This document shows, in pieces, positions 32,765 to 35,715 of a stretch of DNA of 64,000 nt (its first letter is position 1; the number at the start of each line of letters is the position of its first letter). The notes under the pieces are model-generated. The model had not been told where the DNA came from and ran no database searches. It worked only from the letters and a program-made list of their open reading frames with translations. This DNA is from a virus. The stretch is from IMG/VR virus record IMGVR_UViG_3300021335_000004. One strand, 5' to 3'. Both the position numbers and the translations under genes were made by a program.

Positions 32765-32940
32765 ATTATAAGTAATTTTTAAGCTTTTAGCAAATGCAAA
32801 AGCTGTTTTTTATGTTTGATTTAAGAAAAATATTGACAGATAATCAACATTTTTGTATACTAATTAAAATAATGAGTCAAAAATAATACTTAAAAACTCA
32901 TTAGATATATAATAACAAAAACTTATCATATAGGCAAGAA
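32765..32940. promoter_or_regulatory. Divergent promoter region
   Basis: + strand TTGACA(32833)-N17-TATACT(32856); - strand TTGCTA-N17-TATAAT near 32793-32765; coding strand switches here. Confidence 0.7.
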
Positions 32941-32945
32941 CGAAT

Positions 32946-33197
32946 ATGAATTATAAACTAGTTGGATTCTATAAAAATGAACATAATCGTACATACATTA
33001 GTGCATTATTTGATTTAATTAAAAAACGTCACCCCTCTATTACACAATCAGAAATATATGACTATCAGTCACAAAAAGCAATGGACTTAAGTATTAAACT
33101 TTTTCCTTGCGTACTGGTATTTAAAAATGATACTCTACATAAGAAGTTAGAGTCTAAACTAACATTAAAAGAATCATTACAAAAGTTGGGATTATAA
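32946..33197 (+). CDS. Thioredoxin-fold-like small protein lacking CxxC
   Basis: LSIKLFPCVLVFKND resembles the Trx cis-Pro region. Confidence 0.4.
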   Translation: MNYKLVGFYKNEHNRTYISALFDLIKKRHPSITQSEIYDYQSQKAMDLSIKLFPCVLVFKNDTLHKKLESKLTLKESLQKLGL

Positions 33198-33394
33198 TGT
33201 ACATAAAAGTAAGAAATAATGATGTAAGCAAAGCTTATAAAGCATTAAGTAGAAAACTTAATACTGAAGGTATTTTTAAAAAATTAAAAGAAAAACGATT
33301 TCATCAGACTAAAGGTGAAAAAAGAAGATTAAAACATAAAGAAGCTGTAGCAAGAATAAGAAGAATGGAACGTAAAAAAGAAGAAGAAAATTAA
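33197..33394 (+). CDS. rpsU: Ribosomal protein bS21
   Basis: VRNNDVSKA...L.RKL..EGIF..LK.KRF...KGEKRRLK..EA..R. Confidence 0.85.
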   Translation: MYIKVRNNDVSKAYKALSRKLNTEGIFKKLKEKRFHQTKGEKRRLKHKEAVARIRRMERKKEEEN

Positions 33395-33395
33395 T

Positions 33396-33716
33396 GTGAC
33401 AGATACTTTAAAAAGCAGTATACAAAAAGATTCTGAAGGATTTCATATACTGGTTGAAACAGAGGACATAAATTTTTCTGAATTTAAGAAAGCTAAAATA
33501 TTGTATTATATAGTAGAAATACACAGCATGAAATCAAGTGATATAGGAATCATGGCTGACGAAATAGATGGTGTTCAACACCCTATTAAATTTGATTCTT
33601 ATTCAAAAGCTAAAGTGTCTGCTTCTAAACTACAAGAACAATTAGGAGAAGAATCTCACTGGTTTACTAAGATTATTTCAAAAGAAAAAGATATTGTTTC
33701 GTCTGAGGAGCAGTAG
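33396..33716 (+). CDS. Hypothetical protein
   Basis: 106-aa ORF between bS21 and tmRNA. Confidence 0.5.
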   Translation: MTDTLKSSIQKDSEGFHILVETEDINFSEFKKAKILYYIVEIHSMKSSDIGIMADEIDGVQHPIKFDSYSKAKVSASKLQEQLGEESHWFTKIISKEKDIVSSEEQ

Positions 33717-34132
33717 AATAAACGGACTGGACGCGGGGGCAGTACCCGCCGCCTCCACCATAAGGACACTAAATGGAAATTATTTGGCATATACTATTAA
33801 CAGCTTGTATGAATTCTGAGTGTAGAACTCAAGATGTTCAGTGGTTTGATAATAAAAACACGTGTGAAGCAACAAAAAAACTTTACGAAGAGATTCCTCT
33901 AGATGGAAATTGGACAAGTGTTAAGTATATTTGTAAACCAAAAGGCTCAGTGTCTTTATGATGGGGGCGAAATAGGATCGACAGACGTAGTAAAAACTAA
34001 ACCGAGAAACAGGTGCGCAAGCGACCTTAACCGCAAGAAAACAACAATTGCAAATGATAATTTCGCAATCGAGGATTACCGCTTAGCGGCATAATCTCAC
34101 GGGGCGGCCACTGCCTAGCAACAGAAAGTGGC
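33695..34132 (+). ncRNA. ssrA: Permuted two-piece tmRNA: acceptor piece ends with CCA at 33760; coding piece 33963 to ~34132; tag ANDNFAIEDYRLAA at 34050-34094
   Basis: T arm GCGGG-GGCAGTA-CCCGC. CGCCTCC-A-CCA pairs with downstream GGGGGCG giving a G3:U70 pair. GAAATAGGATCGAC D-region and alphaproteobacterial-type tag. 5' end approximate. Confidence 0.92.
33773..33961 (+). CDS. 62-aa Cys-containing protein encoded inside the tmRNA intervening segment
   Basis: AAGGA RBS at 33762, ATG 33773, TGA 33961; four Cys; fills the intervening segment. Confidence 0.7.
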   Translation: MEIIWHILLTACMNSECRTQDVQWFDNKNTCEATKKLYEEIPLDGNWTSVKYICKPKGSVSL

Positions 34133-34151
34133 ATTTTTAAAGGAGGTACAA

Positions 34152-35228
34152 ATGGCGCCAAGAAATCATAAGTCCTGGTTAACAAAACCAAAAGTAGAAG
34201 CTATTAGTAGTGAAATTTATAATAGTTTTGATATTTACAAGCAAGAACAAGAAGATATTTTTTCAAAAGTTTGGGTTCCTGTTTGTCATATGTCAGAGAT
34301 GCCAAATGAAGGCAACTTCAGAACATCATCCATTGCTGGAGTTTCCATTATTGTTTATAATTTCAAGGATGAAGAAGTTAGAGCGTATAAGAACTATGAT
34401 ATTAAACAGGTATCTGGTACTTTTGCTGCTCCTATAGTAACTTCAGAACCTAGGTTACATTGTGAAGTAAAACATGGCGGTATGGTATGGGTAACACTAG
34501 ATCCTAATCCTACACAGAGTGTTGAAGAATGGACAGCAGGAGCTTTTGATTGTATTGCTGATGCTATTGACACAGAAGAAATGGAAGTATTCCATTATCA
34601 CAAAGCTGTGATTGATACAAACTATAAACTGTGGCATGATACTAACTCAGAGTTCTACCACGATTTTATGCATTATTTTAATAGAGTGTCAGGATTTAAT
34701 GATGAATATTTCGCTAGAAAGAATATTCCTTTTGATAATGGTCACGTTAATGTGTCTAGCTTTACTGTTAACTATGAAGAGTATGACGGATTTGAAGATC
34801 GCGGGGAACTATCTTTTCCCAATCTGCCGCCCAACCAGTGGTACATGGTCGATCTCTTCCCAGGATATAACTTCAACCTTCGTGGTTCCGCCTATCGTTC
34901 AGACTCAGTAACGCCTCTTGGACCTAATAAGGTGCTTATTGAATTTAGAGGATATGGATTAAAGAAAGATACACCAGAAGAAAGACAAACAAGAATCAAA
35001 CACCACAACTCTATTTGGGGACCCTTCGGTCGCAACCTACATGAAGACCTTATTGGTGTTGCTGGTCAAGGTACTACAATGAGAGAGGGTACCGAATCTA
35101 GGAACATTCTACACGGACGTCATGAAAACAGTACAATTCATGACGAAGTTGGCATGCGTCATTATTATGCAGAATGGAGCAAGTGGATGGGGTTAGATGC
35201 GAGTAGGCCATGTCAATTAGCGGCATAG
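34152..35228 (+). CDS. Rieske non-heme oxygenase alpha-subunit homolog lacking the Rieske cluster ligands
   Basis: AGGAGG RBS before ATG 34152; E.E.IFSKVWV, NYKLW..TNSEFYHDFMH, LFP, EDL; no CxH/CxxH ligand pair. Confidence 0.85.
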   Translation: MAPRNHKSWLTKPKVEAISSEIYNSFDIYKQEQEDIFSKVWVPVCHMSEMPNEGNFRTSSIAGVSIIVYNFKDEEVRAYKNYDIKQVSGTFAAPIVTSEPRLHCEVKHGGMVWVTLDPNPTQSVEEWTAGAFDCIADAIDTEEMEVFHYHKAVIDTNYKLWHDTNSEFYHDFMHYFNRVSGFNDEYFARKNIPFDNGHVNVSSFTVNYEEYDGFEDRGELSFPNLPPNQWYMVDLFPGYNFNLRGSAYRSDSVTPLGPNKVLIEFRGYGLKKDTPEERQTRIKHHNSIWGPFGRNLHEDLIGVAGQGTTMREGTESRNILHGRHENSTIHDEVGMRHYYAEWSKWMGLDASRPCQLAA

Positions 35229-35265
35229 TCTCACGGGGCGGGTACTGCCTAGCAACAGAAGTACC
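35217..35265 (+). repeat. Direct repeat of the tmRNA tag end and 3' pseudoknot (copy of 34083-34132)
   Basis: ttagcggcata[a/g]tctcacggggcgg[cc/gt]actgcctagcaacagaa[a/-]gt[gg/ac]c. Confidence 0.9.
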
Positions 35266-35329
35266 ACTAACCTTAAGTCCCGCTAACTAGCTGGACTTTT
35301 TATATGAAATACAAGAGAGAATCAAAACA

Positions 35330-35662
35330 ATGAAAAAACTATTAATTGCAGCGATAGTTGCAACACCCTTATCTGCGTTTGCAGAAGATAACATTACAAA
35401 AACTATTGGAATTGAAAAAGCATTAGAATCAGAAATTACTACAGGATATTTTGATACAACTGGTACTTGGGGTTCTATCAGTAGTACTATAGGACTAAAC
35501 TGGGAAGACACAGCCGCTGATCAACTTAACATGAATTTTTCTAGTGTAGAATTAGATATAGATTATTCTTTTGATGGAGCAATTACTATTTATGCCGACA
35601 ATGATTGGGATGATGATTTTAAACACACAGAAACTACTGTTGGAGCAAAATTTAAGTTTTAA
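35330..35662 (+). CDS. Small outer-membrane beta-barrel/porin-like protein
   Basis: Signal peptide MKKLLIAAIVATPLSAFA, alternating beta-strands, terminal VGAKFKF. Confidence 0.65.
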   Translation: MKKLLIAAIVATPLSAFAEDNITKTIGIEKALESEITTGYFDTTGTWGSISSTIGLNWEDTAADQLNMNFSSVELDIDYSFDGAITIYADNDWDDDFKHTETTVGAKFKF

Positions 35663-35689
35663 GCACAAATTCTAAAAACAACGTAAAAA

Positions 35690-35715
35690 GGGAGGGTTAC
35701 ACCTCCCTTTTTTTT
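35690..35715 (+). terminator. Rho-independent terminator
   Basis: GGGAGG-GTTACA-CCTCCC plus T8. Confidence 0.85.

Follow-up and report, generated by a model that had tools for sequence, protein, structure and literature searches.

Cassette exchange at a marine phage tmRNA gene as the probable origin of a duplicated tmRNA tail behind an oxygenase gene

Background

Phage genomes are mosaics. Relatives which infect the same cell recombine illegitimately or at microhomologies, and cassettes are shuffled in this way in the hyperplastic regions of T4-type phages, among others. A different kind of rearrangement is known from bacterial ssrA, the gene of transfer-messenger RNA (tmRNA), and direct repeats of a tmRNA 3' end around a gene resemble the attL and attR sites found there. 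Such attL/attR-like integration at bacterial ssrA is mentioned in PMC9004378, a report which also makes two-piece tmRNAs known from marine myophages (Melnitz and the pelagimyophages). In this work, we describe a stretch of marine phage DNA of 64,000 nucleotides (nt), IMG/VR record IMGVR_UViG_3300021335_000004, hereafter the window, to which all positions refer unless a contig is named. In the window, the 3' tail of a phage tmRNA gene is found twice, the second copy being fused in frame to the end of a neighboring oxygenase gene, whose product thus ends, like the tmRNA tag, in Leu-Ala-Ala (LAA). The likely explanation, held with good though not full confidence, is that cassettes have been shuffled at the phage tmRNA, leaving the second tail behind, and that the LAA ending belongs to the oxygenase family itself.

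The locus may be compared with three kinds of described systems. As in Melnitz and the pelagimyophages (PMC9004378), an alphaproteobacterial-type permuted ssrA is carried by a large marine phage, with tRNA genes near related loci and a glutamine riboswitch at one of them, L054; unlike theirs, the window gene has a 202-nt intervening segment which bears an open reading frame (ORF), and is missed by ARAGORN. Exchangeable cassettes and a duplicated tail, as found behind the window tmRNA, are not described in that report. With islands and prophages in bacterial tmRNA genes the locus shares direct repeats of the tmRNA 3' end which bracket foreign DNA, one copy functional and one orphan. In contrast to them, the window has a permuted tmRNA which belongs to the phage, no integrase appears to take part, and the junctions, both of them microhomologies, are at two separate sites; one end of the repeat, moreover, is joined in frame to a protein gene, and it was the ending of this gene which gave the homology. 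With phage mosaicism, that of the T4-type phages included, the locus has in common that conserved anchors enclose interchangeable cassettes, that the junctions are sharp and involve few common bases, and that identities are mosaic. Here, however, a structured RNA gene forms the left anchor, and the crossover motif is a convergence in coding, tag and enzyme both being written with an LAA-stop. The duplicated tail itself is a mosaic junction of the usual sort, albeit one that is well documented.

Results and discussion

Two copies of a tmRNA tail

A repeat search of the window returned an ungapped direct repeat, 34083-34126 versus 35217-35260, with 93% identity over 44 nt, which reaches 34132 and 35265, respectively, once a 1-nt deletion in the loop is allowed. 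Both copies lie on the + strand, as do all the tmRNA pieces, the oxygenase gene, the crossover motif, the hairpin, ORF110 and the terminator described below. Copy 1 (34083-34132) contains the LAA codons and stop of the tag, followed by a pseudoknot with stem 1 at 34102-34105/34113-34116 and stem 2 at 34107-34112/34127-34132. Copy 2 (35217-35265), the orphan tail, has stem 1 at 35236-35239/35247-35250 and stem 2 at 35241-35246/35260-35265, and encodes the last three codons and the stop (...CQLAA*) of the oxygenase ORF, 34152-35228. Copy 1 has the stop codon TAA, and copy 2 TAG. In stem 2, GCCACT/AGTGGC of copy 1 corresponds to GGTACT/AGTACC of copy 2, so that both partners are replaced in two base pairs; the copies agree in stem 1 (GGGC/GCCT) and in the loop AGCAACAGAA.

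The repeat is far beyond chance. An earlier note on this DNA had pointed to it, to the compensatory nature of the stem differences and to the retained stem 1 and loop, and all of this was confirmed by the repeat search, by alignment with one loop deletion and by the computed stems. The same note took the element for a tmRNA tail with an H-type pseudoknot: this was borne out, and indeed understated the case, as Rfam finds an entire permuted tmRNA. The tail regions do not stand out by their single-sequence folding energies (z = -0.2 to -1.3), as is expected of a folding model which leaves out pseudoknots.

Copy 1 is the functional 3' end of the tmRNA gene of the window, and the same copy-1 tail is the sole tail in two close relatives, L002 and L085. 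The tail was searched with an nhmmer profile over 540 kb, comprising the window and 85 related loci: matches were limited to tmRNA 3' ends and two orphan sites, one in the window (35229-35268) and one in a further relative, L082 (2887-2927).

Cassette arrangements behind the tmRNA

Four arrangements are found 3' of the tmRNA in phages whose tmRNA body is 98.6-100% identical to that of the window, a comparison for which only five related contigs of the lineage were available. In the B form (L002 and L085), the tmRNA with its copy-1 tail is followed by the oxygenase ending in QLAA, a small ORF and a terminator. The A form (L084) has no oxygenase, and features the tmRNA, its tail, a hairpin with a run of T, a small gene named ORF110, a terminator and downstream genes. 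The window contains tmRNA, oxygenase, tail, hairpin, ORF110 and terminator, in this order. In L082, finally, a copy-2-type tail is joined directly to the tmRNA, and hairpin, ORF110 and half a terminator come after it; this half is fused to the final 22 nt of the tag, behind which a copy-1-type tail and then the oxygenase are found.

Alignment of the window with the B form places the boundaries of the exchanged segment: homology ends at 35228 and resumes at 35701, a 202-nt segment with the small ORF replacing 35229-35700. The tmRNA of L084 is 100% identical to that of the window over 184 nt, and the copy-2 tail with its cassette is 98.7% identical to the segment behind the tmRNA of L082; segment identities form a mosaic profile. 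The exchanged segment includes the hairpin with T-run, a terminator (35276-35301; -10.6 kcal/mol, z = -3.8, 0 of 200 shuffles as stable), which lies directly behind the tmRNA in L084 and L082, and behind the oxygenase in the window. ORF110 (35330-35662) encodes a small protein whose N-terminus resembles a signal peptide, and accompanies the orphan tail: elsewhere it was found only in L082 and L084, always directly after a tmRNA tail, searches for relatives giving a single further contig in IMG/VR and a single one in JGI metagenomes. A strong terminator (35685-35712, stem 35692-35700) forms the right boundary, homology to L002 resuming at 35701. IMG/VR searches with the trailer and the tag end returned only the two known contigs, and an exact search of the same collection with the 26-mer of the copy-2 pseudoknot gave no match.

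The small ORF of the B form (L002 4078-4240; L085 3578-3740) has a conserved frame and no ATG, GTG or TTG start; it is also found after the oxygenase in many other clades.

The earlier note had proposed that the oxygenase was captured by recombination at ssrA, gaining an LAA degron in the process, and that the second tail has been kept by structural selection. Recombination did occur at the 3' end of the phage ssrA; the oxygenase, however, is not the captured part. What differs from L002 and L085 is the segment from the LAA-stop to the terminator at 35700, containing tail, hairpin and ORF110, and precisely this segment is located directly behind the tmRNA in L084 and L082.

The junction between oxygenase and orphan tail is genuine. 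Every sampled word of a 301-nt stretch across it is present in six runs from six studies, and Logan contigs of four runs from four studies (X2, X3, X4 and X5) span oxygenase, copy 2 and ORF110 with zero differences; in three of these runs the contigs are 12-16 kb long, in the remaining one 652 nt. The window itself can have come from no more than one of the runs. An assembly chimera of co-occurring A-form and B-form phages, one circumstance under which the earlier note would have been set aside, is thereby refuted. Both forms do exist in nature, but with 12 nt the motif that they have in common is not long enough to lead an assembler astray, and the independent contigs cross the junction without a mismatch, so that we regard an artifact as virtually impossible.

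In run X4, a low-depth contig connects the tag region of the tmRNA to copy 2 without intervening DNA (34038 to 35218), its shorter side being 21 nt and its depth 4. This weak joint, too short to count, may come from a co-occurring A-form genome or from a deletion between the repeats.

Junction motifs and the origin of copy 2

The crossover site is a 12-nt LAA-stop motif (35217-35228), common to the 3' end of the oxygenase and to the end of the tmRNA tag: homology to L002 and L085 ends at 35228, and homology to the L082 and L084 cassette starts at 35217. Oxygenase end and tag end are identical at 10 of the 12 positions, 8 of them consecutive, and the sole reason for this resemblance is that both encode Leu-Ala-Ala-stop. 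The junction of L082, a second and independent one, is a 9-nt microhomology, GAGG(G/A)TTAC, which occurs at 34071-34079 in the tag and at 35692-35700 in the terminator stem.

That the two short microhomologies are distinct speaks for illegitimate or unequal recombination when relatives infect the same cell, rather than for a site-specific enzyme. A gene between direct repeats of a tmRNA 3' end does call attL and attR to mind, and it could be supposed that an integrase or homing enzyme uses the tail as an att-like site, as for islands in bacterial ssrA. The junctions of the window and L082 are, however, at different sequences, each a short microhomology; neither cassette contains a recombinase gene, the integrase family PF00589 has no match on a near-identical contig of 64.5 kb (32% of the genome), identities are mosaic, and the tail is not dispersed elsewhere. 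On these grounds, an att duplication made by an integrase is disfavored, and site-specific insertion in general appears extremely unlikely.

The changes in stem 2 call for a separate comment. The tail attached to the L082 tmRNA has a stem 2 of the form GGTACT/AGTGCC, with a T.G wobble: it is one step from copy 2, and features the same swap of C-G to G-C. Since a copy-2-like stem variant is thus present on a functional tmRNA, the compensatory changes need no selection on the orphan copy, contrary to what the earlier note had assumed. As judged from these alignments, the stem difference between copies 1 and 2 would be a divergence between two functional tmRNA alleles, brought together by recombination. 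Apparent covariation under selection in an orphan RNA may, in other words, be explained by recombination of functional alleles, which suggests caution in interpreting compensatory changes between paralogous copies.

We propose that the DNA just 3' of the phage tmRNA is a site of cassette exchange, with two alternatives: oxygenase plus small ORF, as in the B form, or hairpin plus ORF110, as in the A form. The window would be a recombinant holding both, B-like in its left part up to the LAA-stop of the oxygenase, and A-like from the LAA-stop of the tag onward. A crossover within the LAA-stop motif would have carried the A-form tail, with pseudoknot, hairpin and ORF110, in behind the oxygenase, and copy 2 would accordingly be a scar of recombination, a 3' tail which came from the tmRNA allele of a sibling phage. 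The four arrangements and the positions of their junctions are observed; the direction and number of the crossovers we infer. With both parental forms and two different recombinants at hand, the 3' end of a phage tmRNA is documented as an anchor of cassette exchange, and a coding-level convergence, such as LAA-stop in tag and enzyme, is seen to be able to furnish the crossover site.

Several observations weigh against this scheme. The 12-mer of the window is tag-like (A) at position 9 and oxygenase-like (G) at position 12, which is not expected of one clean crossover and requires one extra point change or patchy heteroduplex repair. An A-form genome with the exact copy-2 stem was not found among the contigs of the lineage, L084 having the copy-1 stem and L082 the T.G wobble. 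The right flank of the window is 98.4% identical to the B form versus 91.2% to L084, which makes it necessary to invoke either another exchange close to the terminator or a donor outside the sampled contigs. The succession of events is unrooted, and L082 could have arisen from a window-like genome by duplication and deletion. Finally, the copy-2 stem is fully Watson-Crick, so that copy 2 may be under selection after all.

The latter point bears on the possibility that the scar was subsequently co-opted, copy 2 and the hairpin together forming the 3' end of the oxygenase message, or a module for its stability or processing. This message would probably arise by readthrough from the promoter of the bS21-tmRNA region. 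No terminator is found between the tmRNA tail and the oxygenase, and the first good hairpin with a T-run follows copy 2, whose stem 2 is fully paired; moreover, the same arrangement is found in runs of 2018, 2024 and 2025, indicating that it is stable despite its direct repeats. Against this, the same oxygenase occurs in B-form phages without the element, the element is limited to one lineage, and the hairpin alone would suffice for termination. Co-option thus seems unlikely, albeit less so than the other alternatives to cassette shuffling considered here.

The LAA C-terminus

The C-terminal Ala-Ala with its free carboxylate is the key determinant for recognition by ClpX, which also requires a free tail of at least 5 residues (PMC7652416, PMC10862746; the requirement on tail length is from PMC7652416). 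A census of phage oxygenases, clustered at 90% identity, gave 121 clusters, of which 98 have AA at their end and 80 have LAA. Entropy in the C-terminal alignment is zero at the last two positions, versus 1.4-2.3 bits upstream; in the sequences ending in AA the third-last residue is mostly Leu, and both the preceding eight positions and the length of the tail are variable. LAA-stop is spelled by 18 distinct 12-mers, in which all Leu, all Ala and all stop codons are used, a variety which argues for selection on the peptide.

Results at the level of loci are in agreement with the census. Most homologs at 80 IMG/VR loci end in LAA, IAA, VAA or MAA, and no tail-like element follows the oxygenase stop at any of these 80 related loci. 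The near-identical oxygenases of L002 and L085 (99-100%) end in QLAA, followed by an unrelated small ORF and no tail. Among the 83 ORFs of at least 80 amino acids in the window, the oxygenase is alone in ending in AA. The LAA ending thus appears to be native to, and selected in, the phage oxygenase family, rather than acquired from ssrA.

These data also bear on the capture of the oxygenase at ssrA. Some observations are in its favor: the repeat and its compensated stem are real, and the oxygenase adjoins a tmRNA in several phage clades. The distant homologs of about 400 amino acids which carry the Rieske motif, presumed to be cellular, have no LAA ending, suggesting that LAA arose within the phage clade, and formally leaving room for an ancient capture. 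On the other hand, LAA and AA endings are found throughout the family, written in many different codon strings and with unrelated DNA behind them; L002 and L085 combine a protein 99-100% identical, QLAA end included, with the lack of a second tail; and the copy-2 stem variant is present on the functional tmRNA of L082. Capture as a recent event is contradicted, and the overall proposal is, in our opinion, quite improbable. Of the claim of an LAA gained from ssrA, what stands is that the enzyme does end in an ssrA-like LAA; its derivation from ssrA does not stand, in view of the family-wide occurrence, the various codons and the loci without a tail. Similarly, comparing cellular and phage homologs at their C-termini and 3' flanks gave a divided outcome: the former, as far as the distant sequences are cellular, lack LAA, and the latter have LAA but not the element.

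The window enzyme features a terminal Ala-Ala preceded by a hydrophobic residue, known as C-motif 1. In an AlphaFold2 model (pLDDT 89, monomer only), residues 347-358 are coil, and the mean pLDDT of residues 351-358 is 67. An invariant Ala-Ala, usually after Leu, on a predicted unstructured tail of about 12 residues resembles the C-motif-1 ssrA-like ClpX degrons (PMC7652416, PMC10862746); unlike these degrons on native proteins, the bearer is here a family of phage auxiliary enzymes. It is plausible that the LAA of the oxygenase is a ClpXP-type degron, a function which we likewise infer. The fuller proposal, that the (L/V/I/M)AA ending is a working mimic of the ssrA tag, making the enzyme a substrate or competitor of ClpXP in the infected cell, with the repeated adjacency to tmRNA reflecting a functional link in addition to a common place in a variable region, is put forward tentatively, as a possibility to which we give less than even weight. 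If the ending is indeed a degron, a phage auxiliary gene would have a built-in timer or decoy.

The more valuable lead offered by this locus is, in fact, at the family level, a very abundant marine phage enzyme whose tail is variable and probably exposed, and carries an invariant Ala-Ala. What deserves experiment is this ssrA-like terminus, found throughout the family, together with the recurrent tmRNA neighborhood.

The oxygenase family

The oxygenase gene (34152-35228) encodes 358 amino acids, ending in ...CQLAA, and is related to the alpha subunits of Rieske-type non-heme iron oxygenases (MsmA-like), without the ligands of the Rieske cluster. It contains the catalytic domain PF00848 (E = 1.5e-7), with the 2-His-1-carboxylate iron ligands H170, H174 and D331 conserved; the best Foldseek matches are TPADO, NagGH and CntA (E about 1e-21). 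The Rieske motif, CxH...CxxH, is found in 0 of 121 phage-clade representatives, and most of the distant homologs of about 400 amino acids keep it. The mononuclear iron site, by contrast, is kept across the phage clade.

A named relative is the 'methanesulfonate monooxygenase' of HMO-2011, 74% identical, which ends in ...VEKAA and has no tmRNA nearby; it was the only match in the 'phages' collection, where no close relative of the window is found. The family is large: the protein collection contains more than 1,200 relatives, and IMG/VR at least 600 loci. The genes of L085 and the window differ by 35 silent substitutions and 0 replacements, encoding an identical protein, so that the phage oxygenase seems to be under strong purifying selection at the protein level, although the Rieske cluster has been lost.

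Oxygenase and phage tmRNA adjoin in at least four clades, in both gene orders. The tmRNA lies just upstream of the oxygenase in L003 and L040, about 100 nt downstream in L072, L073 and L079, and about 1.7 kb downstream in L060, L063, L065, L076 and L077.

The tmRNA gene and its surroundings

Rfam recognizes an entire tmRNA of alphaproteobacterial type, in circularly permuted form, at 33659/33696-34135, with scores of 104.1 bits for RF01849 (threshold 50) and 105.1 bits for RF04321 (threshold 47). The order of its parts is that of a two-piece tmRNA. The acceptor piece (33696-33760), delimited by the RF04321/RF01849 alignment, contains the T-arm and the 3' acceptor strand, with the CCA end at 33760. 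It is followed by an intervening segment of 202 nt (33761-33962), which appears as an insertion in the Rfam models, and by the coding piece (33963-34135), defined by the Rfam alignment and the computed stems, with the tag ANDNFAIEDYRLAA at 34050-34091, the stop at 34092-34094 and the pseudoknot at 34102-34132. The first seven bases of the coding piece, GGGGGCG at 33963, pair with the 3' strand of the acceptor, G3.U70 included. The tag ends in RLAA, and the terminal pseudoknot, ending at 34132, carries the conserved loop of the family; both its stems covary widely among phage tmRNAs of other clades. Covariance models, gene order, tag and pseudoknot thus concur in assigning the gene to the two-piece tmRNAs. 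ARAGORN detected no tmRNA in the window, probably because of the long intervening segment.

PHROGs had no match for the oxygenase, for the ORF of 62 amino acids in the intervening segment, for ORF110 or for two neighbors. The nearest contig, of 64.5 kb, is rated 32% complete, which implies a genome of about 200 kb, that is, a large marine phage; searches at the whole-genome level were made on a near relative, G001. Tag and tail patterns gave no exact match in 185,579 species genomes, and neither tail could be assigned to a host or cellular source; as a search for exact patterns, this is not evidence of absence.

A near-consensus promoter at 32833-32861 is followed by an ORF of 83 amino acids, the bS21 gene (33197-33394) and an ORF of 106 amino acids which overlaps the start of the tmRNA, and no terminator is predicted upstream of 35276 in the stretch following this promoter. 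The tmRNA apparently sits in an operon behind the bS21 gene.

The intervening segment is nearly filled by a Cys-rich ORF of 62 amino acids (33773-33961), which has no match in Pfam or PHROGs. In other phage tmRNAs from the same sequencing runs the segment is only 10-28 nt long, and tmRNA genes in related clades measure 305-544 nt: the variation of the segment suggests a hotspot of insertion. At L054, a glutamine riboswitch aptamer (RF01739, 4478-4526 of that contig) and tRNA genes adjoin the oxygenase locus, recalling the pairing of riboswitch and tmRNA in Melnitz.

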